Source: Firmicutes bacterium UBA5766
GTDB lineage: Bacteria > Bacillota > Desulfotomaculia > Desulfotomaculales > Nap2-2B
Assembly (NCBI GenBank): GCA_002418775.1
Contig: DIEU01000049.1
Span: forward strand, 32,241 to 96,240
Length of the DNA: 64,000 bases
Direction: 5' to 3'
Shown: positions 3,506-41,529 of the stretch, one piece after another
Layout of the letters: each line of letters opens with the position of its first letter
How positions within the stretch are numbered: the stretch's first letter is position 1
Program-made: the position numbers and the translations under genes
The notes under the pieces: generated by a model
Database searches by the model: none
Told to the model about the DNA's origin: nothing
What the model saw: only the letters and a program-made list of their open reading frames with translations

Positions 3506-3577
3506 TTTTACGTTATTGTTCAAAAGGAAAACATATTAGATTATTTACATGTCTTACGAGGACATGCGTAGAAAATG
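3292..3577 (+). repeat. left copy of a split direct repeat that brackets the FN3 gene (blocks 3292-3348 and 3511-3577)
   Basis: Block 1 matches 4972-5028 and block 2 matches 5034-5100, each with about 10 mismatches by eye. Block 2 here is a dead copy of the next glycosyltransferase's 5' end (ATA in place of ATG, and a TAG). Confidence 0.8.
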
Positions 3578-4963
3578 GAGGTGGCGACTTTGAGAAGAAC
3601 TAATTCTATTTTACTGGCGCTGGCGTTAATGTGCTGTTTGCTCTTAATTACCGCCCAGGCTGTTTCGGGGGAAGTGTTAGAAGATGTTAATCCGCCCACA
3701 GCCCTGAAGGCAGAGGTGGTTTCTTCCTCGCAGATTAATTTGACCTGGACGGATAATGCATCAAATGAGTCTGGATTTATAATTGAACGCAAGGCGGGCA
3801 ATGATGCCTACAATCGAATCAATATCGTCCCGGAGAACTCCACGATGTTTGCGGATACCGGCCTTGCAGCCAACACAACCTATAAATACAGGGTCAAGGC
3901 TTATAACAACACAGTGGGATCTTACGTATATTCCGATTACTCCAATGAAGTTAACGCCACTACCAAAGATACTAAACCGGCGGCGCCTTCAAACCTTTCT
4001 GCCAGCGCGCAGTCGTCTACCAACATTAAACTAACCTGGAAAGACAACTCAAGCAATGAGAGCGGCTTTAAAATCGAACGCAAAATATCTGGCGGCAGCT
4101 ACAGTCAGCTAAAAACGGTAAGCGCCAATACAACCAGCTATACAGATACAGGGCTATCCGGCGGCGCCAAGTATTATTACAAAGTGCGGGCGTATAACGA
4201 TGCCGGAGACTCGGATTACTCCAATGAAGTTAACGTCACTACCAACGCCACCACTACTAACGATACTACATTGACGGCGCCTACAAAACTTTTAGCCAGC
4301 GTGCAATCGTCTACCAGTATTAAACTAACCTGGACCGACAACTCCAGCAACGAGACCGGCTTTAAAATCGAACGCAAACTTTCTGGAGGCAGCTACAGCC
4401 AGCTGAATAAGGTAAGCGCTAATACAACCAGCTATACCGACAAAGGACTATCCAGTGGGACCAAGTACTATTACCGTGTTTACGCTTACAATTCTAGCGT
4501 GAATTCAAAATACTCCAATGAAATTAACGCCACTACCAACGCTGCCACCACAGCTATTGCGAAGGCAACCGTGATTAAGCTAACTATTGATAAATCAACT
4601 TTTTATGTAAACGATCAGTTAAAAACAATGGATACAGCCCCTGTGGTCCGGGAAAATCGAACGCTTCTGCCTATGCGGTATGTTGCTGAAGCCATTGGGG
4701 CCTCGGTAACCTGGGGGACTAGCGATAAAAAAGCGACAGTATCTCTTAATAAAAAAGTGATTGAGCTCTGGATCGGAAAGAATTCAGCCTTGGTCAACGG
4801 CCAGAACATGCTCATTGACGCCGGAAATCCAAATGTAACACCCATTATCATCCAGCCAGGGAGAACCATGTTGCCATTGCGGTTCATTTCGGAATGCCTG
4901 GGCTCTAAAGTGGACTGGGATCATAACAAGAAAGAGATTACTGTGACATATCCGGCGCCTTAA
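3575..4963 (+). CDS. secreted protein: signal peptide, three fibronectin type III modules and a C-terminal copper-amine-oxidase-N-terminal-like (stalk) domain
   Basis: Hydrophobic N-terminus 'ILLALALMCCLLLITAQA'. Three repeats of 'LTW.DNSSNE.GF.IERK...Y.Y.V.AYN'. The C-terminus 'TLLPMRYVAEAIGASVTW' / 'TMLPLRFISECLGSKVDW' is typical of the Cu_amine_oxidN1 fold. Confidence 0.8.
   Translation: MEVATLRRTNSILLALALMCCLLLITAQAVSGEVLEDVNPPTALKAEVVSSSQINLTWTDNASNESGFIIERKAGNDAYNRINIVPENSTMFADTGLAANTTYKYRVKAYNNTVGSYVYSDYSNEVNATTKDTKPAAPSNLSASAQSSTNIKLTWKDNSSNESGFKIERKISGGSYSQLKTVSANTTSYTDTGLSGGAKYYYKVRAYNDAGDSDYSNEVNVTTNATTTNDTTLTAPTKLLASVQSSTSIKLTWTDNSSNETGFKIERKLSGGSYSQLNKVSANTTSYTDKGLSSGTKYYYRVYAYNSSVNSKYSNEINATTNAATTAIAKATVIKLTIDKSTFYVNDQLKTMDTAPVVRENRTLLPMRYVAEAIGASVTWGTSDKKATVSLNKKVIELWIGKNSALVNGQNMLIDAGNPNVTPIIIQPGRTMLPLRFISECLGSKVDWDHNKKEITVTYPAP
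3983..4545 (+). repeat. two diverged tandem 294-bp FN3-module repeats (a third, more diverged module lies at about 3690-3980)
   Basis: DNA-level similarity between 3983-4276 and 4277-4545 is visible by eye, for example 'attaaactaacctgga..gacaactc.agcaa.gag..cggctttaaaatcgaacgcaaa'. Confidence 0.7.
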
Positions 4964-15126: not shown

Positions 15127-16141
15127 GCATTTCCCGGGTCAGCGCTGTTTCCGCCGGTATATCGACAACCGCTTTGCATCCGATTATAGAATCCCAGAGC
15201 ATTGGCGATATTCCTGTTCCCGGCCTCTTTACAGTCAGACAGTCTTCAGTAATTCTTGCGCCTGCCGGAATATTTCTGCTGGAAACGATACTGCGTCTGG
15301 CTGCTGCAGCGATTTTTATTTCATCGGGTACCGGGGCTTTGAAACCGTCTCCGAGGCTTTTTTCCGCCAGGCGGATAAATCCCACCATACTATTTAATTC
15401 GTCCGGTTCTAGGGAACATTTATGGTCAGGACCCTCCATTTTACGGTTTAATGTAAAATGTTTTTCAATTACTTCGGCTCCCATAGCCACCGCAGCGATG
15501 GGGACGGCGTATCCAATGGTGTGATCCGAATAACCTACGGGCGGGCCGAATGCTTGTTTGAGAGTGAGCATTGCTTTTAAATTTACTTCTTCGGGAGGCG
15601 TTGGGTAATTCGACGTGCAGTGAAGCAAAGTAATTTCCCCGGCGCCCGAACTTTCAAGTATTTGGATAGCTTTTTTAACTTCCTCCAAAGTTGACATTCC
15701 CGTAGACATGATTACTTTCTTTCTTTTTTCGCCTATCCGCCTCAGCAGGGGCAGATTGGTTATTTCTCCGGAGGGAATTTTGAAGCAGTCCAGGTTTAAC
15801 TCGTCCAGAAAATCAACGCTTTCCAGGTCAAAAGGGGAGGAAAGAAAAGTAATTCGGCGCCGGTCGCTGTACTCTTTCAGCTTTCTGAAATCATCAAAGC
15901 CGAGTTCGAGCTTTTTAAGCATTTCCAACTGGCTTTCAACTCTATGCGGCATGTTCTTTTGCTGGTATTGAGCCCTTTCGGCGAAAGAGGTGACTAATTT
16001 TTCTGCTTTAAAGGTTTGAAATTTAACCGCATCCGCTCCGCTTTTGCAGGCAAAATCAACCATCCGCATGGCCAGGTCCAGACTCCCGTTATGATTTACG
16101 CCTGCTTCGGCGATAATAAAAACACTGCTTCTTCCTGTCAT
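15104..16141 (-). CDS. nonulosonic acid synthase (NeuB/LegI family)
   Basis: 'VFIIAEAGVNHNGSLDLA...ADAVKFQTF' is the NeuB signature, with a C-terminal SAF-like tail. The start overlaps the upstream stop by 1 nt (TAATG). Confidence 0.9.
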   Translation of the reverse strand: MTGRSSVFIIAEAGVNHNGSLDLAMRMVDFACKSGADAVKFQTFKAEKLVTSFAERAQYQQKNMPHRVESQLEMLKKLELGFDDFRKLKEYSDRRRITFLSSPFDLESVDFLDELNLDCFKIPSGEITNLPLLRRIGEKRKKVIMSTGMSTLEEVKKAIQILESSGAGEITLLHCTSNYPTPPEEVNLKAMLTLKQAFGPPVGYSDHTIGYAVPIAAVAMGAEVIEKHFTLNRKMEGPDHKCSLEPDELNSMVGFIRLAEKSLGDGFKAPVPDEIKIAAAARRSIVSSRNIPAGARITEDCLTVKRPGTGISPMLWDSIIGCKAVVDIPAETALTREMLEDFEGG

Positions 16142-17322
16142 TATTGAATAATCACCTCACCGGGGCCCGGAAAATCAAGCCGCTTTTCTAAAATGGTTTT
16201 CCCAAGCGGAGTTTGTTCAAGTAGCCTGACAATTCTTTCACTCGCCTTTCCGTCCCGGAAGGGATCGTAAGGGTTGACTGTTTTGGGCAGACCGGCGCGA
16301 AATACCGGATCGGTCAAAGCTTTTTGCAGGCCTTGAACAATGTCTTCCCTGCGGCAGTTTACATCCAATACGCTTTCCGCCCTGATTCTGCCCTTTTGGC
16401 GGTTGCCTATGTTGACGGTTGGAATGTGGAAGCTGGGCGCTTCGATAATGCCGCTCGAGGAATTACCCACCACCGCTGAAGCAATCCGCATCAATCCGAG
16501 GTAACCCCGGGAACCCAGGCTTGGTTTAAGCAGCACATTGTTTTTATTCAAAGCATAATCCTGCCAGATTTGAATCACCGCCTGATAGCCTGTTTCCATG
16601 CCGGGATAGGTAATCACCTGCTGGTATTCCTGAAATTGCTCCAGGGCCAGCGCAACTTCTTTTGCCTGAGCTTCCGTATCATTTTCGCCGGTAATTGTTT
16701 CCGGGTGAAAAGTAATCAGCAGGGTGGGTGTTTCGGGATCTATGCCGAAGTTGTTTTTGATTTCTGATGGTGAAAGATAATCACAGGAGTAAATATTTTC
16801 GATTCCGGTTGAGCCGACAACGTGAATCCGCCATGCCTCTTCACCCATCCGCCTGATCCGGCGCCCATATTCCCAGGTTGAAACAAAATGAAGATGGGCC
16901 ATCTTTGTCAGCGCATGGCGCACCTGTTCGTCAAGCGCGCCCTCGGTTGATTCACCGCCGGCAATGTGGGCGATCGGCGCCCTATAGATTAAAGCGCAGG
17001 CAGCGGGGGCAAGGAGTTCGTATCGATCCCCCAAAAGAAGCAAAAAATCGGGCCTGTATTTCCCGATTATTGAAGCCATTTTAACGGTTGCCTCGCCGAG
17101 AGATCCGGCGATGGATTCATGATTATCGGAAGCGGGCGTGAAGGGGACTGTTTCGGCAACGGCAAATCCGTCCTTTTTAATGTCCGAAATTGTACCGCCC
17201 TTGTATGAGGCCAGATGATCGCCGGATGCGACCAGGATAAGCTCGAGGTCCGGGCTGTCCGAAATATTCTTCAGGACCGGTTTTAACAGGCCGTAATCAG
17301 CCCTTGTTGAAGAAAAGGCCAT
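16141..17322 (-). CDS. UDP/GDP-N-acetylglucosamine 2-epimerase (hydrolysing), NeuC/LegG family
   Basis: 'STRADYGLLKPVL...HIAGGE.TEGA.DE..RHA.TK..H.HF' is typical of NeuC. I set the start at ATG 17322 (MAFSSTRADYG), overlapping the upstream stop in TAATG. The Arg-rich 83-aa N-terminal extension in the ORF track is out-of-frame overlap with the acetyltransferase gene. Confidence 0.9.
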   Translation of the reverse strand: MAFSSTRADYGLLKPVLKNISDSPDLELILVASGDHLASYKGGTISDIKKDGFAVAETVPFTPASDNHESIAGSLGEATVKMASIIGKYRPDFLLLLGDRYELLAPAACALIYRAPIAHIAGGESTEGALDEQVRHALTKMAHLHFVSTWEYGRRIRRMGEEAWRIHVVGSTGIENIYSCDYLSPSEIKNNFGIDPETPTLLITFHPETITGENDTEAQAKEVALALEQFQEYQQVITYPGMETGYQAVIQIWQDYALNKNNVLLKPSLGSRGYLGLMRIASAVVGNSSSGIIEAPSFHIPTVNIGNRQKGRIRAESVLDVNCRREDIVQGLQKALTDPVFRAGLPKTVNPYDPFRDGKASERIVRLLEQTPLGKTILEKRLDFPGPGEVIIQ

Positions 17323-18047
17323 TATCCTGCGCAAGCTGCCATAACACCTCTGGAAGGATTCTTGACAATTACCGCCGGGTTTCCAAAGGCGGTCACACCT
17401 GCGGGTATGTCCCTTGTAACAACTGCCCCGGCGCCAATCAAGGCGCTTTCCCCGATAGTGATTCCCTGGATTATCCGTGCGCCTGCGCCGATAAACGCTT
17501 TTTCTTTTACCGCTACTTCTCCGCAAAGAACGGCGCCCGGACCGATCTGGGCCGAATGACCGATCAAACAATCATGTTCGACTATAGCTCCGGAATTGAT
17601 GATTACATTTTCTTCTATCACAGCGCGGGTGTTAATAATTGATCCGGCCATTACCACGGTAGCCGGGCCGAGCCGTGCAGTCCGTGAGACTATTGAACCC
17701 GGGTGCTTGAAAACGGGAAATTCAAAACCATTATATAGACAGTATTCGTAAAGGGTTTTTCTTTTCAGGTTGTTAAAACCCGCCATACCCATGGCGGCAT
17801 ATTTGAGCAGTTTATCAGGAAGGTTGGCAATAATACTGTCATTGCCGAGGTAGGGTAGCTCATCTCTTGTCAGAATGTTTTCTGGTTGAGGATCAACACA
17901 GCCGACCGGCTTGAACTTTTTTGTCATGAGGATTATTTCAACGACAACCCTTGCGTGGCAACCAGCCCCGATAATCACAATCGGTTTTTTATTCATAGGC
18001 ATATTCTGATACATCGTTTGCTTTCGATACAAGGGCAATTGAATCAC
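17322..18047 (-). CDS. sugar N-/O-acetyltransferase, NeuD/PglD/LegH family (LbH)
   Basis: N-terminal Rossmann-like 'PIVIIGAGCHARVVVEII' followed by hexapeptide repeats. GTG start preceded by GAGGAAAG. Confidence 0.8.
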   Translation of the reverse strand: MIQLPLYRKQTMYQNMPMNKKPIVIIGAGCHARVVVEIILMTKKFKPVGCVDPQPENILTRDELPYLGNDSIIANLPDKLLKYAAMGMAGFNNLKRKTLYEYCLYNGFEFPVFKHPGSIVSRTARLGPATVVMAGSIINTRAVIEENVIINSGAIVEHDCLIGHSAQIGPGAVLCGEVAVKEKAFIGAGARIIQGITIGESALIGAGAVVTRDIPAGVTAFGNPAVIVKNPSRGVMAACAG

Positions 18048-18200
18048 ATACTTTCCTCACAGATTCGTCAGTTACAAAGTAGCGCTGGAAATTTATACCC
18101 CTGTATTATAATTCGTCGGCAATACTGTTTTTCTGTAGGTCTACTATGAAAATTTACTATCCCCAGGGAGGGCAACTGCCTACGTGCTCATGTTCGTCTC

Positions 18201-19172
18201 TTACATTATATAAAGTCCTGATTTGTATATCGGGGTGTTCTGCGCAAACCATTCGATTGTTTCCCTAAGCCCTTCCTCCAGAGTGAACTGCGGTTGCCAG
18301 CCTGTCAGGGTAACCGCCTTTTTATTGTCGCAAAGCAGCCTTTCCACCTCGCTGGCTTCCGGTCTTATCCTCGGGGGGTCAATTTCAATTTCTGCTTTTA
18401 TACCTGAGATATTTTCTATCATCTTAACAAGGTCCCGGATTGAGATCTCACTGCCGCTGCCTAGATTGACTATTTCTCCCGTACATTTTTCCGAAAACCC
18501 CACACAGATCATTCCTTTTACCGTGTCCCGGACAAAGTTTAAATCTCTGGTTGGTATAAGGCTTCCCAGGCGGACTGTTTTATTTTCGCCAAGGATCTGG
18601 GTAATGATTGTCGGAACAACCGCCCGGGTAGACTGGCGCGGCCCGTAGGTATTGAAAGGCCTTGCCACAGCAACGGGAAGGCCGAATGAGCGGTAATAGC
18701 TTAAAGCCAGCTGGTCGGCGGCAATCTTTGTGGCGGCGTAGGGGGATTGGGCCTGCAGCGGGTGCGCTTCATCTATGGGTACATATCTGGCTGTTCCATA
18801 AACCTCGGAAGTTGAGGTGACAACTACTTTTTTTGTGCCCAGTTCCGCAGCAGCCTGACATATGTTGTATGTGCCTTCAAGGTTGGTTTTGATATATGCA
18901 AGCGGCGATATATAGGAGTAGGGGATACCTATTAAAGCAGCAAGGTGGAAAACAAGATCAACGTCTTGTAAACAACTTTTTACACTGTCATAATCCCTGA
19001 CATTGCCGGTGACAATCTCCATACCGCCAATTAAGGGGCTGTTTTCCAGCCATCCCCAGTTATTGCGGGAGTTGTAAAGAATTAAGGCTCTTACATTGTG
19101 CCCCCGCTTAACCAGTTCTTCGCACAAGTGAGAGCCTATAAAACCGCCTGCTCCTGTCACCAAGATTTTCAA
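18201..19172 (-). CDS. NAD-dependent nucleotide-sugar 4,6-dehydratase (LegB-like SDR)
   Basis: 'KILVTGAGGFIGSHL' is the NAD-binding motif and 'SPYAATK' gives the catalytic YxxxK. 'LYNSRNNWGWL' resembles the LegB-type subfamily as I remember it. TTG start. Confidence 0.75.
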   Translation of the reverse strand: MKILVTGAGGFIGSHLCEELVKRGHNVRALILYNSRNNWGWLENSPLIGGMEIVTGNVRDYDSVKSCLQDVDLVFHLAALIGIPYSYISPLAYIKTNLEGTYNICQAAAELGTKKVVVTSTSEVYGTARYVPIDEAHPLQAQSPYAATKIAADQLALSYYRSFGLPVAVARPFNTYGPRQSTRAVVPTIITQILGENKTVRLGSLIPTRDLNFVRDTVKGMICVGFSEKCTGEIVNLGSGSEISIRDLVKMIENISGIKAEIEIDPPRIRPEASEVERLLCDNKKAVTLTGWQPQFTLEEGLRETIEWFAQNTPIYKSGLYIM

Positions 19173-19200
19173 AGAAAAATGCCCCTTTCGACTTTCTTGC

Positions 19201-21030
19201 TTATTTTAAGGAATTTAAAGACGTACATATCCATTCTTCAATTTTTTCCGCCGCCTTGTTAAGATCTGTATAAAAAACGCAGGACTGTTCGATTATATTT
19301 CTTGACTTTTCAATTTGCTCAACAGTCTCCTGCTCTTCAACACGGGCAAATTTCTGGTAAGCAGGTGAAAAAATCGAATCAAGCCAGGGAAAAGCTTTTT
19401 GCTGTTCAAATATTTTTTGGTCCAAATGCTTTAGTTTTTCTTTGAACAGGTCTATCTTTTTAAGGGACGGCATTTCACCAGAGCTGTATAGCTGGTCCAA
19501 TTTCTGTGATATCTGCAGTCCTAAACGGGCATACTTTTTTACCCTTCTTAAGCATTGTTTTGTTTCTTTTAAATCAAAACATATTTTTTCGATCACATCA
19601 AGAGGAATATCTTTTTGTACAGCCAGTTTCTTTAATGTTTCGTCAATAGGATATTCTTTTGTCAGGTACCTGTCTATAGTTTCCCTGAAAGTCATTTCTT
19701 CAGTACCGGGAATTCTGGCTCCGCCTTCGGTAGCGTTGATTATTTTTACATGATCTTTGACCAGGGGGATCTCTTCTTCGTACCAGTGTAAAAAACAAGC
19801 CAGGGGAAGACTTGTTTCAACTTTTTTATTCCCTCCGTATCCCTCTACTTCAACCAGTTGTTCGCTGCCTGCGGTCCGCCCCTTGTAGATTGTCTTTTGT
19901 GAGTGTGTTTTGCGGCCGGTGTAGGCAAGGTCCTGACCGATAAAGATAATTGGATCAAGGCCTGCTTTTACGGCCAGGTCAAAGGAAACATTAGCCACAG
20001 AAGGGCCGCCCTTTAAAATGGTTCTTTTCTCATCAATGAAATTCTCCAGCCAGGACATAAAGTAAGGATCATATGCCCCTACAATTTTTGGCCCTTTAAA
20101 ATTGGCGGGGATGCTTTTATAGGTAACTGGAGAAAAGATCAATACAGAATCTTTAACTTCTGCATTTTCGAAATTTGCCGCGTTGGCTTCCGCTCCGTCA
20201 ACAGTGACGACCAGGTCCGGTTCCATTCCGATGCTTAATATTGCTTTAAAAGCGGTTCCGGCTGCAATAATAACCGCCTTGTTTTTAATTTCTTTGAGAA
20301 GGTGTATATTCTTATCCAGGGATGGACCCGCAGCAACAATTACCCCGGGTACGCCCTTAAATGGTCCGCAAAGAACGTCTACATCCGGGGCTTGAATTGT
20401 TGCCGGAAGATTATATAAAAAGTTTTCTGTCCAGTCGAACGAAAAATGCATCAAGGTATTCGAGCATAAGATATGATCAGCTACAACAGCGTTTACAGAA
20501 TCCTCGAGTTCCTTAAAACTATCACCCGCATTGCGCAGTACGGGCAAATACGCCAGGAGCTTAAGTTTTTCAGGCTGGTAGATGTTCAGTTGTCTTTCAA
20601 TCAGTTTGAGAATTTCTTTTTTTTCGGCGCCAAAGTATAAAGTAACGTTTTCCCTGTTAATCAGGGAAGTGAGGTCAACAGCATTTAAGGCGGTTTTAAA
20701 TGTTGACAGGTCAGGTTCCATGGCCACGATTTTTGCTTTTGGGTATAATAGACTCAATCTGTTAAGGTGGTAACCAAAGCCAATTCCACAGACAAGCAGC
20801 GTATCATCTTCCGCCGCGTAGATATTTTGAGCCCACCTGGCGGCCTCTCTCATCGGGTCGTAGGAGCTGTGCAAGTGGCAGACCTTTTTATTACGAGACA
20901 CTTTCAATGTGGGCAGTCCAGTCTTTGCCGGGACGACCTCGCCCAGAGGTGTCGTCTGTGGTAATCTGTCTGCCAGATCAGGATATCTGTTTTTTAGTGC
21001 GGAAAGATTTTTACTGGATAAGTTGCACAT
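19201..21030 (-). CDS. maf: motility accessory factor (Maf, DUF115/MptE-like) putative flagellin nonulosonic-acid glycosyltransferase
   Basis: 609 aa. The central segment 'VIVAAGPSLDKNIHLL...AVIIAAGTAFKAILSIGMEPDLVVTVDG' is typical of the Maf/DUF115 core. It sits between flagellar genes and the sugar genes. Confidence 0.8.
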   Translation of the reverse strand: MCNLSSKNLSALKNRYPDLADRLPQTTPLGEVVPAKTGLPTLKVSRNKKVCHLHSSYDPMREAARWAQNIYAAEDDTLLVCGIGFGYHLNRLSLLYPKAKIVAMEPDLSTFKTALNAVDLTSLINRENVTLYFGAEKKEILKLIERQLNIYQPEKLKLLAYLPVLRNAGDSFKELEDSVNAVVADHILCSNTLMHFSFDWTENFLYNLPATIQAPDVDVLCGPFKGVPGVIVAAGPSLDKNIHLLKEIKNKAVIIAAGTAFKAILSIGMEPDLVVTVDGAEANAANFENAEVKDSVLIFSPVTYKSIPANFKGPKIVGAYDPYFMSWLENFIDEKRTILKGGPSVANVSFDLAVKAGLDPIIFIGQDLAYTGRKTHSQKTIYKGRTAGSEQLVEVEGYGGNKKVETSLPLACFLHWYEEEIPLVKDHVKIINATEGGARIPGTEEMTFRETIDRYLTKEYPIDETLKKLAVQKDIPLDVIEKICFDLKETKQCLRRVKKYARLGLQISQKLDQLYSSGEMPSLKKIDLFKEKLKHLDQKIFEQQKAFPWLDSIFSPAYQKFARVEEQETVEQIEKSRNIIEQSCVFYTDLNKAAEKIEEWICTSLNSLK

Positions 21031-22253: not shown

Positions 22254-23951
22254 TTAAGAACTGCTGTTCATCGCTGAAATTTGGTTTGTCAGCCATGTGC
22301 TGGTTGAATTGAACTGACTAATAAGTTCTTCCATCTGCGCGAACTGTCTCTCCAGTTGCTGCTGTCTGATTTCCAGCCGGTCGTTCATATCCTCAATTGA
22401 AGCGTTTAAAAACTTTATCTCTTTTTCGTAAGCTTTTTGGTGTGCAGATATAAGACCATTTCCATCATTAATCTGGCGGTCAATTTCTTCTATTAGGCGG
22501 ACTGAAATTCCATTTTCACTTTCTCCAAAAAGATTGGCCAGGGCTGTTGATTGGTCTTGGGCTGCTGAAGTTAATTTGCTCTCGTCTATAACTAATTTGC
22601 CGTCACGATCAATAGTAATTCCTGCCTGCGATAACCTGCTCAGGCTTGTTATTGTTCCTTCAACAGGAGCGATAGTCTTTCTCCAGATGGACTGAACCAG
22701 GGACTGCAAAGATATGTCTCCGTTTAATGTGCCTTCTTTATCCAGATCATCGTTGATTAAACTGACCACTTCATTGTACTGGTTGACGAAGTCACTGATC
22801 TTGCTTACAGTCGATTCATAATCAGGCTTAACTTCTATGCTTGCTTCTCCTGAAGTCAGCAGGGTAACGTTCAACCCGGGGATAATATCTGAAACTTCAT
22901 TCGAATCGCTGTAAAAAGTTGCCCCTCCGTTAATTTCCGATATTGAGAAAGCTGCGTTGGCCCCCAGATCCTGTTGAGCGTTTAATATGTCCAGGGTAGC
23001 CAGGAGATTCCCGCTTGTTTCTGATAAAGACATACCAATGCTGCCAGTTTTGCTTGATTTAAGAGCAATTTTGTCTGATACGGGATCATAGCTGGCATAA
23101 ACTTGAGCGTCAGAACTATTTATCCGGCTGATTATGTCGTTTAATGAATCAGCCGTAGTGTCGTAATCTATTGAAACACCATTGATTGTAAAACTGCCGC
23201 TGGTTGTGGAAAGAAGTCCGTTTTTCAAACGCGAATCATCCAAAATTGCATCTGTTTTGGTCATTCCCAGGTTCGCCTGGCTGGTTTTCGTATAAGGTCC
23301 GCTTCCCTGTGCAGGAGCGGCCAAAAGGCGTGTGGCGGTAAGAAAATTGCTTGTATCAGCGCCCTGGCCAAGGTTAAGGTTGTCAGGATTGTCGCTTGTT
23401 AAAACCAGGCGGTCGTTTAAGTAACTTGCTGTAACTCCGGTTGTTGACGACTGCGCATTGATCCGGTCGATTACATTTACCAGGCTGTCACTGGCTGCGT
23501 CCAGGGTAAAAGTATAATTGTTGATTGTAAATGTTCCGCTGGTGGGGGTAATGGCAAAACCGGCTTCGCTGCTGTTTAAAACGGCGCCGGTGTTAACCGG
23601 CTGGCCGATTGTCCCGGCGCTTTGCGTTTTGGTTCCGGTGGCTGTGCTGGTTATGTTAAAATGATATGTTTCCGGCAGGGCGCCGCTCTGTGCTGAAGCT
23701 TTAAGCACTGACTCATTGCTGACCGTGGTGGTTTTACCCGAAAAGGAAGTGGACAGGTTCAAATCTGACAGTGCGTTTTTCAGGGAAAGGAGTTTGGTGT
23801 TAATTGTGCCCCAGGCATTTTTTTTGGCGGTTAAATTTGTAACCTTTGTTTTCATATTGGTCACAGGTTGTTTTTCAAGCTGCATTAATGCCTCAATTAT
23901 GCTGTCTGTGTCAATGCCGGAGCTAATTCCCGTAAATTGAATGGTTGACAT
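22254..23951 (-). CDS. fliD: flagellar filament capping protein FliD
   Basis: N-terminus 'FTGISSGIDTDSIIEALMQLEKQP' and a C-terminal coiled coil '...LERQFAQMEELISQFNSTSTWL'. Confidence 0.9.
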   Translation of the reverse strand: MSTIQFTGISSGIDTDSIIEALMQLEKQPVTNMKTKVTNLTAKKNAWGTINTKLLSLKNALSDLNLSTSFSGKTTTVSNESVLKASAQSGALPETYHFNITSTATGTKTQSAGTIGQPVNTGAVLNSSEAGFAITPTSGTFTINNYTFTLDAASDSLVNVIDRINAQSSTTGVTASYLNDRLVLTSDNPDNLNLGQGADTSNFLTATRLLAAPAQGSGPYTKTSQANLGMTKTDAILDDSRLKNGLLSTTSGSFTINGVSIDYDTTADSLNDIISRINSSDAQVYASYDPVSDKIALKSSKTGSIGMSLSETSGNLLATLDILNAQQDLGANAAFSISEINGGATFYSDSNEVSDIIPGLNVTLLTSGEASIEVKPDYESTVSKISDFVNQYNEVVSLINDDLDKEGTLNGDISLQSLVQSIWRKTIAPVEGTITSLSRLSQAGITIDRDGKLVIDESKLTSAAQDQSTALANLFGESENGISVRLIEEIDRQINDGNGLISAHQKAYEKEIKFLNASIEDMNDRLEIRQQQLERQFAQMEELISQFNSTSTWLTNQISAMNSSS

Positions 23952-29522: not shown

Positions 29523-29834
29523 TTAACGCTTTGTATCTTTCATGGAACCTATTTCCTCAGACAGTCCGTTAATGATTTCTTCCTCATCTACCTCAAAAGA
29601 TTCTTCTTCAATTCTTTGCTGAATACTTTCAATTAAATCCTGACGGACATCTGAAAGGTTATTTAATTTTTGATGGAAAAATTGTATTTCCCTTGCTTCC
29701 GGTGAGATTTCGAGCAAGTTGTTCCCCTCTTCAGTACCGGCGTCTTTTTTAACCCGAAGATTTTTATCCTGTTTTATCTCGCTGCGGTATATTTCTAAAA
29801 GTTTTTGAGCGTTGCCGCTTTCATTTATTTTCAT
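29523..29834 (-). CDS. flgM: anti-sigma-28 factor FlgM
   Basis: The C-terminal 'VRQDLIESIQQRIEEESFEVDEEEIINGL' is the FlgM sigma-28-binding region. ATG 29834 follows GGGGTGA. Confidence 0.8.
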   Translation of the reverse strand: MKINESGNAQKLLEIYRSEIKQDKNLRVKKDAGTEEGNNLLEISPEAREIQFFHQKLNNLSDVRQDLIESIQQRIEEESFEVDEEEIINGLSEEIGSMKDTKR

Positions 29835-29872
29835 TACAATCACCCCGATGGATTTTTTCTCCCTTTTTTATC

Positions 29873-29899
29873 TACTCGGCACAAATAAAATATACTTTA
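29873..29899 (-). promoter_or_regulatory. sigma-28 promoter P1 of flgM (proximal)
   Basis: The minus strand reads TAAAGTAT-N11-GCCGAGTA, a near-consensus match to TAAAGTTT-N11-GCCGATAA. Confidence 0.75.
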
Positions 29900-29931
29900 G
29901 GCCTTAATGAATATTTTTTCTCCTTTTTATC

Positions 29932-29959
29932 TATTCGGCACAAATAAAATATCCCTTTA
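29932..29959 (-). promoter_or_regulatory. sigma-28 promoter P2 of flgM (distal duplicate)
   Basis: The minus strand reads TAAAGGGA-N12-GCCGAATA. Confidence 0.6.
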
Positions 29960-29976
29960 GGCCTTTAAAAATATTT

Positions 29977-30756
29977 TTATTCTTCTTTGTTTTTTGTTTC
30001 CCTTTTTCTGTTTGTGGGTTTTAAGAATCCCGATAGCCGATCCCTGATCAGTGTGGGGTTATAACCGGCTTGAAGAGAGATAATTCCTTCCATCATCAGT
30101 TGCCTGATGAGGATTTCCTTTTTACTGAGGTTGCCCAGTTTTGTGGCGATTGGAAGCCAGATAACATTAGCGCTTCCCACTCCGTAAAGAGTAGCAATAA
30201 ATGCTACTGCAATAGCAGGGCCCAGTTTATCAGGCGTACTCATTTGGCCCAGTACATGAACCAGGCCCATCACTGTTCCGATAATTCCCATAGTAGGCGC
30301 ATAACCGCCGGCTGCTTCGAAAATATGTTTGCCGGTCTGATGGCGCTCTTCGGTGGCATAAATTTCTACCTCAAGCGTATTCTTGACAAGTTCAGGATCG
30401 TTGCCGTCTACAAGGAGTTGCAAGCCTTTTCGAAGGAAAGGATCACTTACTTCGGAAAGCCTGTTTTCCAACTGCAATAGACCTTCCCTTCGGGAAATTT
30501 CGGCCAGTTCAACAATTTTTTCGATAACTTCTCCTGGTTCGGGTACTTTTTGAGTCAGGACGATTTTAAACAAACCAGGAATCGTTTTTATTTCTTTCAT
30601 AGAGAAACTTGCGATAGTGGCTCCTATTGTGCCTCCGAAAACAATCATGGCGGCTGTCTTTTGCATGAGCGCGGATGCATGGCCCCCTTCCAACAGGAAA
30701 CCGCCGACTAAAAAAATAATTGCTCCGAATATGCCAATAAGAATACTAGGATCCAA
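29977..30756 (-). CDS. motA: flagellar stator protein MotA (MotA/TolQ/ExbB channel family)
   Basis: 259 aa with 4 TM segments. 'AAGGYAPTMGIIGTVMGLVHVL' and 'AFIATLYGVGSANVIWLPIA' are MotA core motifs. Confidence 0.9.
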   Translation of the reverse strand: MDPSILIGIFGAIIFLVGGFLLEGGHASALMQKTAAMIVFGGTIGATIASFSMKEIKTIPGLFKIVLTQKVPEPGEVIEKIVELAEISRREGLLQLENRLSEVSDPFLRKGLQLLVDGNDPELVKNTLEVEIYATEERHQTGKHIFEAAGGYAPTMGIIGTVMGLVHVLGQMSTPDKLGPAIAVAFIATLYGVGSANVIWLPIATKLGNLSKKEILIRQLMMEGIISLQAGYNPTLIRDRLSGFLKPTNRKRETKNKEE

Positions 30757-33485: not shown

Positions 33486-35018
33486 ATGAATTGGGCGAAT
33501 TTTCCTGCTGAAGCAAGTAAAAACTGGCAGACCATGCAGCCAAAACGCAGGATGTTAATTGCTGCTGTTGGCGCAGGGGTGATATTTTGTGTATTTTTTA
33601 TTTACGTTTTACTGAACCACATAACCTATGCGCCTTTATTTACCGGACTTGATCCCACTGAAGCCGGATCAATGGTTGAAAGGTTAAAAGAACAAAATGT
33701 GCCTTACCGTATAAGCGATCAGGGAAGAACAATCCTTGTGCCGGAAAAACAGGTTTATGAAGTAAGGATTGGGCTGGCCAGCAGTGGAGCTCTTGGACAA
33801 GGCGAGGGGTTCGAGTTATTTGATCAGACTAAGTTGGGTATAACGGACTTTGAGCAGCAGGTACAATACCAACGGGCCTTACAGGAGGAATTGAGAAGGA
33901 CGGTAACTCAGATGGACGAAGTTGAGCAGGCAAGAGTTCACCTGGTTCTTCCCCAAAAGTCAGTCTTTATTGAACAGGAGAGTCCGTCTTCCGCTTCTAT
34001 AGTATTAAAGTTAAAACCGATGGTGGTGTTAAAACCTAACCAGATCAAAGGGATTGTTGACCTGACGGTGGGGAGCGTGGAAGGTCTTAAACCTGAAAAT
34101 GTTCATGTTATTGATACGAATGGAAATGTTTTAGATGTGGAAGAAAAGAGTTCTATTGCCGGGGGTATGATGGAACAGTACCAGGTTAAAACCTCTTACG
34201 AAAACGCCCTGGAAAAACGTATCCAGGCAATGCTGGAGAAGATTTTCGGAACGGGCAAAACGGTTGTTATGGTTACGGCTGATCTGGATTTCGACAAACA
34301 GGAGATACAGGCGGATACATACCAGCAAGGTCCTATAGTCAGTGAACAGTTGATTAAAGAAAATACACCGTCTGCCGAAGCGGCAGGCGTTCCAGGGACT
34401 CAAACCAATACTCAAACCAATACTCAAACCAATTCTCAAACTGATTCTCAGGTTAACCAGCAAACACAAAGCAGCGGGACACCGCGGGTCGAAACGATAC
34501 GCAATTATCAGCCGATTAGCAGACAGGAGAAGATATACCCGGCAGTTGGAAATTTACAGCGACTGTCGATTGCCGTAGCGGTTGACTCACGTCTTTCTCA
34601 GGATATTGAGCAGCAGATTACCGATGTTGTAAGTTCTGCTGCAGGTTTAAACCAGAGCCGGGGTGATCAGTTGACAATCAGCACTCTTGCTTTTGACAAG
34701 TCCTCTCAACAGGAGACAGAGGCTGAGATGGCCCGGCAGGAAGCAGCCCAAAAGAAAGAGCAGCAGCAAAAAATTATTCTTACTGGTATTGCAGGTTTGA
34801 TCGGGATAATTGTCCTGTTCTTATTGATTAAAGCCATTTTAAGCAGAATATCCCAGGGCAGGGATATGGAAATTGAAGAGTTACGGCCTATTGAGGAAAT
34901 GCAGGTAAGAGAGATTCCTTTACAACCTACTGCGGAAGATAAGGTGCGCTACCTGGCAAAACAACAACCGGCCGAAGTGGCGGAAATAATAAAGGTGTGG
35001 CTGGCGGAAAATCAATAA
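33486..35018 (+). CDS. fliF: flagellar MS-ring protein FliF
   Basis: 510 aa with an N-terminal TM segment. 'YAPLFTGLDPTEAGSMVERLKEQNVPYRISDQGRTILVP' is the FliF signature, and there is a C-terminal TM segment. Confidence 0.9.
   Translation: MNWANFPAEASKNWQTMQPKRRMLIAAVGAGVIFCVFFIYVLLNHITYAPLFTGLDPTEAGSMVERLKEQNVPYRISDQGRTILVPEKQVYEVRIGLASSGALGQGEGFELFDQTKLGITDFEQQVQYQRALQEELRRTVTQMDEVEQARVHLVLPQKSVFIEQESPSSASIVLKLKPMVVLKPNQIKGIVDLTVGSVEGLKPENVHVIDTNGNVLDVEEKSSIAGGMMEQYQVKTSYENALEKRIQAMLEKIFGTGKTVVMVTADLDFDKQEIQADTYQQGPIVSEQLIKENTPSAEAAGVPGTQTNTQTNTQTNSQTDSQVNQQTQSSGTPRVETIRNYQPISRQEKIYPAVGNLQRLSIAVAVDSRLSQDIEQQITDVVSSAAGLNQSRGDQLTISTLAFDKSSQQETEAEMARQEAAQKKEQQQKIILTGIAGLIGIIVLFLLIKAILSRISQGRDMEIEELRPIEEMQVREIPLQPTAEDKVRYLAKQQPAEVAEIIKVWLAENQ
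34398..34457 (+). repeat. 12-bp in-frame tandem repeat (about 5 units) inside fliF
   Basis: 'actcaaaccaat' occurs three times, followed by two degenerate units. It encodes TQTNTQTNTQTNSQTDSQVN. Confidence 0.85.
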
Positions 35019-38182: not shown

Positions 38183-38629
38183 ATGTCTAATTTTGTTTTC
38201 TCGCTGGAAAAAGTTTTAAAGTATCGCTTGAGCGTGGAAGAGGCTGCCAGACAGACTGTGGCTGAAGCACAGGAAAGGTATGCTTTAAACAAAATAATAC
38301 TTGATGAGATGTACAGAAGCTATGAAAAGAGTTTTGTACAGGATGATAAAGATGTTGAAGATTCATGGGTGATCCGCCAAAATAACTACCGTCTTTATTT
38401 AACCAAATGCATAGAAAAGCAGCAAGACATTTTAACCGGAATCCAAAATGAGCTCCATGAAAGACGTGAAAAATTGATTCATGCGTGGCAGGAAAGGTCC
38501 GTTCTTGAAAAAGTAAGAGAAAAGTCATATCACAGATATCAGCTTGAGGAAAAGAACAAAGAAAAATTTCAAAATGACGAAACTGGACAGAGGACTTTTG
38601 TTTATCACAAAAGAGGTCAGTTATTATGA
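38183..38629 (+). CDS. fliJ: flagellar export protein FliJ
   Basis: 148-aa coiled-coil protein beginning 'FSLEKVLKYRLSVEEAARQTVAEAQ'. It follows fliI. Confidence 0.8.
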   Translation: MSNFVFSLEKVLKYRLSVEEAARQTVAEAQERYALNKIILDEMYRSYEKSFVQDDKDVEDSWVIRQNNYRLYLTKCIEKQQDILTGIQNELHERREKLIHAWQERSVLEKVREKSYHRYQLEEKNKEKFQNDETGQRTFVYHKRGQLL

Positions 38630-41112
38630 TTTTACCAACCGAAAAATCAGCCTGGGGCATCCCCTTTGCTGGTTCAAAACAAAAGGAAAAAAACGTATCT
38701 GCAGAAGGGATTGTTAAGGATCAAACCTGGGCTTTTCTGGATGCTGTTAATGCTGTTTATCTATCAGGCGATCTTTGTGCGCCAAAAGTAGAAACTGATT
38801 CCCCGCAGGCAGGCGTTATTCCGGCGGTGGATGCATCTAAAAGCAGCCTGGAGAAGCCTCAAAGTGAACTTTCAAATAAAAATATTAACAAAAATATTAA
38901 TGAAAATTCGTTTCAAAGTGCGATTGGAAAAGTTAACATTTTTGCCGGGTCCCCTGTTGTTTATCAAAGCAGGGATCTAATCAGCATTGATAAAAAGAAT
39001 GAGCTGCGGATGGACAGTCAGACTCAGGATGAAGAAAATGCTGCTGCACTGGCGGAAGCAATTCAAAAAGATAGTATTAATCAGACAACCGAAGGCTGGA
39101 CAGTGCTTACATCCAATTTAATACATGCTGCGAGTTCTGAACAAAATCCGGAAGAGCTTTTGGGAACAAAACCGGATCAGTTACCTGCCGGCGCACAGAC
39201 GCAGGGTAAAACGGACAACAAGCCGCAGGCTAAGGACATTCATGACGGTTCATTCCGGATAATTAAAGACAGTAAAACGGACGAACTGCAGGCTAAGGCC
39301 GAGAACACGGTAAACCTCAATCTAAAGAACGTCAGGTATGTAACAAACACAGGAGCGTCAAAGGAATCAGGGACAGTTCAGAGATCTGCCGCAGCCGTTG
39401 AGGACCTGAATCAAAGTACAGTCAAGTCAACCGGATTTCCAGGAGTTCCGGATATTGGATCTGATGCGGAAAAGCTTTTAGGAACAAAACCGGATCAGTT
39501 ACCTGCCGGCGCACAGACGCAGGGTAAAACGGACAACAAGCCGCAGGCTAAGGACATTCATGACGGTTCATTCCGGATAATCAAAGACAGTAAAACGGAC
39601 GAACCGCAGGCTAAGGCCGAGAACCCGGTAAACCTCAATCTAAAGAACGTCAGGTATGTAACAAACGCAGGAGCGTCAAAGGAATCAGGGACAGTTCAGA
39701 GATCTGCCGCAGCCGTTGAGGACCTGAATCAAAGTACAGTCAAGTCAACCGGATTTCCAGGAGTTCCGGATATTGGATCTGACACGGAAGAGCTTTTGGG
39801 CTCAACACCGGATCAGATACCAGCCGGCGCACAGACGCAGGGTAAAACGGACAAGCTGCAGGCCAAGGATATTTATGACGGTTCATCCCGGACAATCAAA
39901 GACGGTAAAGCGGACGAACCGCAGGCCAAGGATATTTATGACGGTTCATCCCGGATAATCAAAGACAGTAAAATGGACGAACCACAGGCTAAGGCCGAGA
40001 ACCCGGTCAACCTTAATCTAAAGAACGCCAGGTATGTAATAAACGCAGGAGCGTTAAAGGAATCAGGGACAGTTCAGAGTTCTGCCGCAACTGTTGAGGA
40101 GTTGAATCAAAGGACAGTCAAGTCAACCGGATTTCCAGGAATTCCGGATACTGATTCTGATCATAAAGAAATTTCGAAATCCACATCGGATCAATCGTTG
40201 ACTGGCATACAGCGGCAGGTTGAAACAGACAAGCTGCAAAGTATTGTTGGCGATTTCAATTCTTTGGAAGTTGCTCCTTTTGGTCTTAACCGGAGAGTAA
40301 TATCAAAATTTAAGACTGAGCAGTTTTCGCCAGGTTTAACTACACAGGGAAGTGGAACTGAAAATAATAGTAAAAACAACAATACCGGCCACATTGAATC
40401 AATCCGGACAGACACCTGGACGCCCGTCGTTTTAGAAACTGTTGAAAGTTCAACAAACTATACTCCTGACAAAGGCAGTGTCGTTCAATCGTTTGCGGCT
40501 TTAAAAAGTACCGGGAGAATATCTGCCGAAGAAAACGTAAGAGTTCCTGGCGGGGACGAGAAGATAGCCGGTCTGCAACAACAGTCTGACTTGCTGCAAA
40601 ACCTTGCCGGTTCTTTGTCTGAGGCTGCCGGTTTTCCCAGGAATACAGCTTTCAAGCAGGAATCAGCCGGGACTTATCAGCAGGTTTCCGTAGCTGAACT
40701 GCCTCAAATTGTGCTTTCAGCTTTGCGGTCTTCCGGTTTCGGGGAAAAGCTGGTTAGGATTAACCTGATTCCCGAAAATCTTGGTCCTTTAGCAGTTAAA
40801 GTTAAGGAAATCAAGGATAAAATTGTGATCCATTTCATCACTTCCAGCGTTGACGCAAAAGAAGTATTGGAGGTCTCAATGCCCCAACTGAAACAGTCAA
40901 TCTCACTGTTGTCTGGTTCCGCAAATGAAACCCTGGTCTTTTTGAGTCAGGGACAGGGTCAGGGAAATAATGATCATACTCAAGGGGGGTGGTGCTATTT
41001 TAATAATCCTTTTAACCAGTTGTTAAACGATTCTGTGAGTGATACCCGGCAGTTGTTTGAAAATGGTTTAACCAGTCAGGATGAGGCAAGAGCAGTTAAT
41101 TATTGGATTTAG
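38626..41112 (+). CDS. fliK: flagellar hook-length control protein FliK, unusually long (828 aa), with an internal tandem repeat array
   Basis: The C-terminal Flg_hook-type domain reads 'LVRINLIPENLGPLAVKVKEIKDKIVIHFITSSVDAKEVLEVSMPQLKQSI'. Its position between fliJ and flgD supports the call. The ATG overlaps the fliJ stop (ATGA). Confidence 0.8.
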   Translation: MILPTEKSAWGIPFAGSKQKEKNVSAEGIVKDQTWAFLDAVNAVYLSGDLCAPKVETDSPQAGVIPAVDASKSSLEKPQSELSNKNINKNINENSFQSAIGKVNIFAGSPVVYQSRDLISIDKKNELRMDSQTQDEENAAALAEAIQKDSINQTTEGWTVLTSNLIHAASSEQNPEELLGTKPDQLPAGAQTQGKTDNKPQAKDIHDGSFRIIKDSKTDELQAKAENTVNLNLKNVRYVTNTGASKESGTVQRSAAAVEDLNQSTVKSTGFPGVPDIGSDAEKLLGTKPDQLPAGAQTQGKTDNKPQAKDIHDGSFRIIKDSKTDEPQAKAENPVNLNLKNVRYVTNAGASKESGTVQRSAAAVEDLNQSTVKSTGFPGVPDIGSDTEELLGSTPDQIPAGAQTQGKTDKLQAKDIYDGSSRTIKDGKADEPQAKDIYDGSSRIIKDSKMDEPQAKAENPVNLNLKNARYVINAGALKESGTVQSSAATVEELNQRTVKSTGFPGIPDTDSDHKEISKSTSDQSLTGIQRQVETDKLQSIVGDFNSLEVAPFGLNRRVISKFKTEQFSPGLTTQGSGTENNSKNNNTGHIESIRTDTWTPVVLETVESSTNYTPDKGSVVQSFAALKSTGRISAEENVRVPGGDEKIAGLQQQSDLLQNLAGSLSEAAGFPRNTAFKQESAGTYQQVSVAELPQIVLSALRSSGFGEKLVRINLIPENLGPLAVKVKEIKDKIVIHFITSSVDAKEVLEVSMPQLKQSISLLSGSANETLVFLSQGQGQGNNDHTQGGWCYFNNPFNQLLNDSVSDTRQLFENGLTSQDEARAVNYWI
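39151..40161 (+). repeat. tandem repeat array in fliK: two 318-bp units (39151-39468 and 39469-39786) plus a diverged 375-bp third unit
   Basis: Units 1 and 2 differ at about 8 of 318 nt by my reading. Unit 3 carries an internal 63-bp duplication ('QAKDIYDGSSR.IKD.K.DEP' twice). A further degenerate partial unit follows, to about 40236. Confidence 0.9.
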
Positions 41113-41124
41113 GAGAAGATAAAT

Positions 41125-41529
41125 ATGTCAGTATCATCGGTTAGCGCTGAAAGCAGCACGCAGACACAGACGAGTTCATTCAGTACCAGTATTCTGGACA
41201 AAGATTCTTTTCTGAAACTGATGGTTGCTCAACTGGTCAATCAGGATCCTTTCAATACCCAGGATAGCGGGGAGTTTCTTGCCCAACTGGCCCAGGTAAC
41301 CCAGCTTGAACAGATGATCAACCTGAATGATAAGATAAATAATTTGGTGCAAAGCCAGGTTTACACACAAGCTGTATCTTTGGTAGGCCACCAGGTAAAA
41401 GTCCAGGATGCGAATGGAGAAGAAGTCGAAGGTTCAGTAAGTAAAGTTACTTTTCAAAATAGTGAAGTCGGTGTAGTCATTGATGGAACTTCTTACTTGT
41501 TATCCGATGTTGTTGAAGTAACTGATTAA
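41125..41529 (+). CDS. flgD: flagellar hook assembly (capping) protein FlgD
   Basis: 'LDKDSFLKLMVAQLVNQDPFNTQDSGEFLAQLAQVTQLEQM' is the FlgD N-terminal signature. Confidence 0.9.
   Translation: MSVSSVSAESSTQTQTSSFSTSILDKDSFLKLMVAQLVNQDPFNTQDSGEFLAQLAQVTQLEQMINLNDKINNLVQSQVYTQAVSLVGHQVKVQDANGEEVEGSVSKVTFQNSEVGVVIDGTSYLLSDVVEVTD

Follow-up and report, generated by a model that had tools for sequence, protein, structure and literature searches.

Flagellar hook length is tightly controlled and affects swimming performance, and to our knowledge almost all that is understood about the molecular rulers of such structures has been learned with two proteins, engineered Salmonella FliK and Yersinia YscP. 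FliK of Salmonella enterica (405 amino acids, aa) consists of a ruler part (FliKN, residues 1–207), a linker (208–267) and a C-terminal part (FliKC, 268–405) whose core is formed by four beta-strands and two alpha-helices, and insertions lengthen the hook while deletions shorten it (PMC6972891). Engineered Salmonella FliK proteins of 363–785 aa gave hooks of 42–135 nm at 0.2 nm per aa, and non-native lengths impaired motility (PMC6126814). For YscP, the summary given in PMC3469391 reports sizes of 452–538 aa across Y. enterocolitica strains, brought about by the copy number of 14-, 25- and 46-aa repeats (citing Wagner 2009), and a needle length that is linear in YscP size (citing Wagner 2009 and Journet 2003). 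Here we describe the fliK gene carried by a 64,000-nucleotide (nt) stretch of contig DIEU01000049.1 from Firmicutes bacterium UBA5766 (the whole stretch analysed, hereafter the window), which encodes a FliK of 828 aa with a ruler region made of tandem repeat units.

The open reading frame (ORF) belongs to an uncultured Desulfotomaculum-like Firmicute found in a hydrocarbon metagenome from Canada. We identify it as the fliK ortholog, because it matches Pfam Flg_hook (PF02120) at aa 709–760 above the gathering score (35.9 bits, cut-off 29.8; E 6.8e-9) and lies within a flagellar gene order. The precomputed Pfam match agrees with this assignment. Pfam also identified the neighbours fliI, fliJ, flgD, a 'Flagellar_put' ORF and a flgE-type hook gene. 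The order read from the window and from gene calls on identical public contigs is flgB/C-fliE-fliF-fliG-fliH-fliI-fliJ-[fliK]-flgD-Flagellar_put-flgE-fliL-fliN-fliOPQR-flhB-flhA-flhF, and around fliK it is shared with four relatives. As in Salmonella, the protein has a C-terminal Flg_hook domain of the T3S4 kind (the switch of substrate specificity in type III secretion) and is encoded beside fliJ and flgD/flgE; the predicted succession of N-terminal export region, poorly structured ruler and linker, switch domain and tail also resembles that of Salmonella FliK (PMC6972891). However, the window FliK is twice as long, its ruler is built from tandem units of 80–127 aa with nested 21-aa sub-repeats, and it has no detectable sequence similarity to Salmonella FliK outside the C-domain.

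Tandem Repeats Finder located a period of 318 nt in 2.5 copies (score 1391), by far the strongest array within the window, together with a nested period of 63 nt in 2.4 copies at 39841–39994 and a period of 378 nt that corresponds to unit 3 including its extra sub-repeat. Units 1 and 2 keep the reading frame, and exactly 8 of their 318 nt differ (5 nonsynonymous, 3 synonymous); their identical runs include one of 101 nt and the longest, of 115 nt (Table 1). Unit 3 has 89–90% nt identity to both of them when a 63-nt indel is excluded. This indel is the second copy of the 63-nt sub-repeat, which is present once each in units 1 and 2, twice in unit 3 and in none of the units of the relatives. Between the two copies within unit 3 there are 5 nonsynonymous and no synonymous differences, which are too few to interpret. 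A partial fourth unit follows (61% nt identity at 40163–40232), and since relatives carry one too (proteins P0003, P0004 and P0062), the partial terminal unit is ancestral. The first-pass annotation of this DNA had described an 828-aa FliK with a Flg_hook domain and, between its N-terminus and C-terminal domain, two 106-aa units about 8 of 318 nt apart, a diverged third unit with a 21-aa internal duplication and a partial fourth unit. The ORF list and Pfam, the placement of the repeat region, the exact nucleotide count with unchanged unit coordinates, the sub-repeat copies starting at 39856 and 39919 and the partial unit at aa 515–545 agree with this description.

Alignment of the units across lineages points to an ancestral module of about 80 aa, which reads ..PDQLPAG.Q..GKTD-[KR][PL]Q[VA]KAEN..K..Y.T..ASKESG.VQ...E..N..TVK...D.G.D..., with 16 positions invariant across six units from three lineages. 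The array always closes with a partial unit running into QSIVGDF. No Pfam family scored above threshold in the repeat region, and no Rfam match was obtained within the window at gathering thresholds, so there is no RNA element that would explain the repeats.

Among the 5.8 billion clustered proteins and the 1.84 billion representatives that were searched, the relatives of this FliK form a small clade only. All of them share the synteny, the N-terminus MI[LF]PTEKSAWGI and the C-terminus ...NYW[IV]. The ortholog from 'Desulfotomaculum sp. 46_296' / UBA7919 has 635 aa, with 45% identity in the best local alignment and 53% in a three-sequence alignment, and contains two old units, which share 52% identity and escape Tandem Repeats Finder at the DNA level. 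A 46_80-like lineage (P0062) encodes 533 aa with approximately one degenerate unit. A third lineage, represented by Eubacteriales metagenome-assembled genomes (MAGs; P0004, P0008, L009, L011), has an array of its own in fliK with a 261-nt (87-aa) unit and 98% matches (L011:1-487, L009:3001-3766). One of its contigs begins and the other terminates inside the array, and the number of copies is two or more. A segment of about 39 aa directly after QSIVGDF (aa 546–585, window 40261–40380, NSLEVAPFGLNRRVISKFKTEQFSPGLTTQGSGTENNSKNN) is found in the window, P0004 and P0062 and is missing from the 46_296 / UBA7919 ortholog. The number of units is thus about 1 in the 46_80-like lineage, 2 in 46_296, at least 2 in the Eubacteriales MAG lineage and 3 in the window. 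The first-pass annotation had called for a comparison of fliK length and copy number in relatives, with an identical repeat number and synonymous divergence as the signature of an ancient, fixed array; both the lengths and the unit numbers turned out to differ among the lineages. A first search of the protein collections recorded the 828-, 722- and 635-aa forms only and no allele with three or more near-identical units. The JGI metagenome collection, searched with protein patterns and an exact 29-mer of the repeat core, gave no matches and no further alleles.

Two contigs of the 46_80-like lineage, a lineage of species rank, also differ within fliK. Comparison of L012:4001-5410 with L010:3710-5311 revealed a 144-nt in-frame deletion at the degenerate unit and a 65-nt frameshifting deletion in the C-domain, giving a product of 400 aa; the allele with the frameshift may be a decaying gene or pseudogene. 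The two contigs are 97.2% identical from where the aligned locus starts up to nt 540 of fliK, and beyond the 144-nt indel they are 100% identical, which hints at a recombination boundary at fliK.

Divergence at synonymous sites (dS, Nei-Gojobori) is 0.041 between units 1 and 2 and 0.19–0.21 between either of them and unit 3, and between the window and the 46_296 MAG it is 0.365 for fliI, 0.38 for fliJ and 0.62 for flgD. At the protein level the window units are 79–95% identical among themselves and 38–52% identical to any unit of the relatives. This order of dS values and the contrast in identity indicate that all three window units arose, or were homogenised, after the lineages split, with the duplication of units 1 and 2 as the youngest event. 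The pair is not brand new, as its eight substitutions imply a long stable inheritance despite identical runs of 101 and 115 nt. The suggestion of a recent duplication in the first-pass annotation is therefore borne out in a relative sense, the pair being young in comparison to the split from the nearest relative (dS 0.04 against 0.37–0.62), and has to be qualified to the extent that eight substitutions mark a long-stable pair. The ratio of nonsynonymous to synonymous divergence (dN/dS) is 0.35–0.5 in the units, 0.58 in the N-terminal region of FliK, 0.74 in the linker and 0.09 in fliI. The values of the units are close to those in the rest of FliK outside the C-domain and far above that of fliI, suggesting that constraint on the units is relaxed, yet not absent.

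Prediction of the full-length protein with AlphaFold2 (AF2) from a three-row alignment gave coil across the repeats and throughout aa 1–684, with predicted local distance difference test (pLDDT) values of 22–35, apart from predicted helices at aa 35–46 and in the linker. A single unit, modelled from a six-row alignment of the units, showed no secondary structure (predicted template modelling score 0.10). No other part of FliK is as hydrophilic as the repeat region (mean hydropathy −0.86). Taken together, these predictions are consistent with an unstructured ruler. In the C-terminal domain (aa 685–760, pLDDT 52–62) strands were predicted at 685–688, 708–715, 721–729 and 732–739 and helices at 689–702 and 742–760. 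The four strands and two helices of this low-confidence model equal the element count of the FliKC core (PMC6972891). When the C-terminal 243 aa were compared by sequence with the PDB, no match at E<=1 was returned.

To place the window FliK among others, we used an exhaustive HMMER search, which returned 59 matches; 50 near-full-length representatives outside this clade were used for comparison, and internal repeats were scored with 50-aa sliding queries at E<1e-4. The median length of the representatives is 504.5 aa, five of them reach 780 aa or more and one has 1161 aa. Internal repeats are present in 16 of the 50, some with copies that are 94–100% identical, and all five of the proteins of at least 780 aa are repeat-built. 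Representatives with repeats have a median length of 551 aa as compared to 487 aa for those without (Mann-Whitney p = 0.002). The window FliK, which the first-pass annotation had termed oversized, is indeed about twice the size of its Salmonella counterpart, but it is not exceptional: it is a large example of a recurrent pattern. Since long FliKs are generally repeat-built, repeat expansion is suggested as a common route to a long ruler. In some metagenomic representatives, among them P0025 (827 aa), P0052, P0061 and P0022, it is the ruler region that is tandemly repeated, with one Flg_hook domain following at the C-terminus as in the window FliK, and some copies are 84–96% identical; the sequences of their repeats are unrelated to those in the window. 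In the searchable literature we came across no account of this route or of natural tandem-repeat variation in fliK.

Other representatives have a different architecture. In P0013, P0016, P0031, P0037, P0038 and P0049 (560–1161 aa) the Flg_hook domain itself is present in 2–4 copies, some of them 98–100% identical, unlike the window FliK, which does not repeat its C-domain. A ruler with several switch domains would be mechanistically puzzling, and this architecture might be real or an assembly artefact. In P0009 (487 aa) an apparently duplicated segment with a lytic-transglycosylase-like motif, GALGIMQLMPATA, recognised by eye only, lies upstream of Flg_hook, and this protein may be a fusion or a chimera.

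We propose, with a probability of roughly 0.6, that the ruler region of this fliK has been lengthened by nested tandem duplications and that the longer ruler postpones switching and thereby lengthens the hook. Of this reading, the identity as FliK, the repeat anatomy, the relative age of the duplications and the differing unit numbers of the relatives are observed, and the recombination mechanism, secretion and the influence on hook length are proposed. FliK comprises a conserved N-terminal region (aa 1–175) with a predicted role in export, a hydrophilic, apparently unstructured unit array and a C-terminal domain (aa ~685–760) that would switch FlhB. The array grew by at least four nested duplications, most likely through unequal homologous recombination or replication slippage. 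A 21-aa sub-repeat would have originated in the ancestral unit of about 80 aa; a whole-unit duplication would then have separated unit 3 from the ancestor of units 1 and 2; unit 3 would have gained its second sub-repeat copy; and units 1 and 2 would have arisen from the last duplication. FliK would be secreted as an extended chain, and the export gate would be switched once the C-domain reaches FlhB. Each added unit of 106 aa would delay switching and add about 16–21 nm to the hook with a helical chain (0.15–0.2 nm per aa); full extension would raise the gain to at most about 39 nm. Extrapolation on the Salmonella calibration of 0.2 nm per aa would give 21 nm more per unit, and hooks of about 140 nm for the 828-aa protein and about 81 nm for the 533-aa relative. 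That a longer ruler makes a longer hook in this organism is something we infer purely from Salmonella FliK and Yersinia YscP.

The nearest experimental parallel in size is the engineered Salmonella series (310–785 aa), in which a FliK of almost the size seen here (785 aa) is secreted, switches and gives tightly controlled hooks of 135 nm (PMC6126814). Its insertions, unlike the units of the window, are artificial and were taken from helical segments of YscP. Long hooks reduced bundle stability and motility in Salmonella, a peritrichous enteric (PMC6126814), and transfer to the window organism is uncertain. YscP itself belongs to a homologous ruler family with a T3S4 C-domain and likewise shifts in length as its ruler region gains and loses tandem repeats, so that the fliK of the window can be regarded as a flagellar analogue of YscP repeat variation. 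YscP, however, serves an injectisome and not a flagellum, and its repeats are shorter and helical. Its strain variation and the effect on length have been shown experimentally, whereas for the window FliK we infer both.

Several points weigh against this proposal. The ruler relation behind the predicted effect on the hook was tested for the most part in Salmonella, and there 40 additional aa in the FliK linker impaired switching (PMC6972891), indicating that extra length is not always tolerated or linearly read. The dN/dS of the units is 0.4–0.5 and not 1 and, together with the 16 invariant positions, indicates some constraint beyond mere length. Gene conversion among the units could mimic young duplications; by a rough estimate the 101- and 115-nt identical runs are about what is expected for 8 random differences in 318 nt, which is evidence neither for nor against conversion tracts. 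The AF2 alignments had only three to six rows, and low pLDDT is therefore weak evidence for disorder.

The alternatives to be weighed concern both the reality of the repeats and their function. The metagenome-type data, and the fact that the units differ by single-nucleotide substitutions only, bring to mind two strain haplotypes joined in tandem by the assembler, an account that we consider scarcely credible. The junction between units 1 and 2, TCTGATGCGGAAAAGCTTTTAGG (window 39460–39482), is unique, none of its central 21-, 31- and 41-mers being found a second time in the window, and it cannot be derived from the other junctions: over 60 nt it has 19 mismatches to the junction between the N-terminal flank and unit 1 and 7 to the junction between units 2 and 3, so that an assembler could not have invented it. 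Public assemblies concur. Over 22.5 kb, no difference separates the window from an ENA MEGAHIT contig (run SRR636559). A JGI contig (3300000032) departs from the window by 2 mismatches and 3 gap openings in 22.5 kb, a different error profile, yet its 828-aa product is identical. In all, 9 contigs with the exact 828-aa protein are listed in the index, which also names NCBI as a source. A related lineage, moreover, has independently acquired the same kind of array. Given the unique junction, the eight fixed differences and the agreement of the JGI and ENA contigs, the two-unit form is real, and assembly duplication, which the first-pass annotation had wished to see checked, was rejected as an origin of the 828-aa form. 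The 722-aa allele is a different matter. This protein (P0002, 828 minus 106 aa) comes from two contigs of the short-read metagenome assembly of run SRR636597, a sister run of SRR636559 in BioProject PRJNA183510, which covers hydrocarbon-contaminated sites in Canada (PMC7164591). Its DNA equals the window minus exactly 318 bp and otherwise shows no difference in 22 kb, with the deletion junction inside the 115-nt identical run. This fits a homologous deletion and is equally a classic signature of short-read repeat collapse. We favour collapse of the two 97.5%-identical units, in a population that would carry the 828-aa form only and show no strain-level variation in copy number, as the probable account of this allele. 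It contains no base that is absent from the 828-aa form, so its contigs cannot validate it; it is represented by 2 contigs against 9, all from one BioProject; and the repeats of the related Eubacteriales lineage also defeat assembly, with contigs terminating inside the array. Some weight remains on the other side, as both units of the sister run were resolved by this very pipeline (contig names k127_...), the 722-aa contig passes unbroken through the array where a loop in the graph should have caused a break, and the longest identical run is also where the crossover of a real RecA-type deletion would be expected. The copy-number variation anticipated by the first-pass annotation thus exists between lineages, while within a population its sole candidate is this allele.

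The repeats, though real, might be tolerated baggage in a disordered and weakly constrained segment, with no meaningful tuning of hook length and no adaptive significance. In favour of this view are the fast evolution of FliK outside the C-domain across the clade relative to fliI, the internal repeats of 16 of the 50 FliK-domain representatives, a frequency suggestive of general tolerance, and units predicted by AF2 to be unstructured. We nevertheless regard it as rather unlikely, as ruler length alters hook or needle length wherever this has been tested (PMC6126814; PMC3469391, the latter in summary) and changes in hook length have consequences for motility (PMC6126814). In addition, the pair of units has persisted through eight substitutions although its long identical runs would permit deletion, and it should therefore at least not be deleterious. 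The units could instead be interaction modules, for example for FlgD, FlgE or the thick Gram-positive envelope, with copy number altering avidity or timing and the array not acting as a passive gauge. The motifs PDQLPAG, QxKAEN, ASKESGxVQ and TVK are conserved across lineages of ~40–50% identity, the invariant positions and a dN/dS below 1 point in the same direction, and Salmonella FliKN binds FlgD and FlgE (PMC6972891). This explanation seems improbable to us in view of units with no predicted fold and no Pfam family above threshold, and of the 46_80-like lineage, which keeps only a degenerate unit and has a variant without even that.

Under our proposal of a ruler lengthened by tandem duplications, a broader idea can be put forward tentatively: the FliK rulers of this clade, and perhaps more widely, given that a third of the recovered representatives carry internal repeats, may evolve as tandem units are continually gained and lost. 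This would make hook length a naturally tunable trait, possibly polymorphic within populations (828 against 722 aa), and the 533-, 635-, 722- and 828-aa forms might constitute a natural allelic series, the flagellar counterpart of YscP repeat variation. If the ruler reading is true, a natural FliK lengthened unit by unit, with relatives of 533, 635 and possibly 722 aa, would illustrate how evolution changes hook length. The natural series of units could also supply ready-made constructs for the ruler model in Gram-positive anaerobes.

The coordinates of fliK, its parts and its neighbours are collected in Table 1. The ATG of fliK overlaps the stop codon of fliJ (ATGA). The gate-recognition consensus FxxxΦ, reportedly from work by Evans in 2013, has a candidate counterpart in the N-terminal region. 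The N-terminus together with A36, F37, D39, A40 and V41 is invariant across P0001–P0003 and is also present in L009 and P0062. The concept of N-terminal export signals was taken for comparison from PMC8983047, and the M-I-L-P N-terminus and F37-L-D-A-V41, both conserved in all the relatives, resemble by eye the signals described there.

Table 1. Features of the fliK region, in window coordinates.
Feature	Position	Strand	Basis or remark
fliJ, upstream neighbour	38183..38629	+	Pfam FliJ, E 1.6e-10
Shine-Dalgarno sequence AAGAGGT	38611..38617	+	8 nt upstream of the fliK ATG; read directly from the sequence
fliK ORF, 828 aa + stop	38626..41112	+	ORF list; Pfam Flg_hook; between fliJ and flgD
Non-repeat N-terminal region, aa 1–175	38626..39150	+	hydrophobic extreme N-terminus MILPTEKSAWGI
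Candidate gate-recognition motif F37-L-D-A-V41	38734-38748	+	in the N-terminal region of FliK
Repeat unit 1, aa 176–281, 106 aa	39151..39468	+	Tandem Repeats Finder, direct comparison
Repeat unit 2, aa 282–387	39469..39786	+	8/318 nt differ from unit 1
Repeat unit 3, aa 388–514, 127 aa	39787..40167	+	extra 21-aa sub-repeat
Partial terminal unit, aa 515–545, ends in conserved QSIVGDF	40168..40260	+	unit alignment; fourth member of repeat family D2
63-nt (21-aa) sub-repeat PQAKDI[HY]DGS.R.IKD.K.DE	39223..39285, 39541-39603, 39856-39918, 39919-39981	+	Tandem Repeats Finder, unit alignment
Longest unit 1/unit 2 identical stretch, 115 nt	39350..39464 (= 39668-39782)	+	direct comparison
Linker-like region, aa 546–684	40261..40677	+	low-confidence structure; helix at aa 643–662
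C-terminal switch (T3S4 / Flg_hook) core, aa 685–760	40678..40905	+	Pfam aa 709–760; AF2
C-terminal tail, aa 761–828	40906..41109	+	low-confidence structure; conserved end ...EARAVNYW[IV]
flgD hook cap, downstream neighbour	41125..41529	+	Pfam FlgD, E 2.1e-19
flgE-type hook protein, 273 aa	42013..42834	+	Pfam Flg_bb_rod, LlgE_F_G_D1, Flg_bbr_C

Other repeats are present elsewhere in the window. A 59-nt tandem repeat in 2.1 copies with 88% matches occupies 29852–29978 (minus strand) in the motA-flgM intergenic region. Each copy contains a sigma-D/sigma-28-like promoter, TAAAG-N15/16-GCCGA[AG]TAG, just upstream of flgM (~29523–29843, minus strand), and the repeat looks like a duplicated promoter for this anti-sigma factor gene. 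At 3957–4542 a 294-nt tandem repeat (2.0 copies, 80% matches) reflects successive fibronectin type III domains encoded in the ORF at 3575–4963, which also has a copper amine oxidase N-terminal-like domain. A 12-nt repeat, ACTCAAACCAAT, is present in 3.7 copies at 34398–34441 inside the fliF ORF (33486–35018). Finally, genes for a Maf/MptE-like protein (19201–21030) and a UDP-GlcNAc 2-epimerase (16141–17571) on the minus strand adjoin fliD (22254–23951), which suggests that 16141–21030 may be a flagellin glycosylation island.

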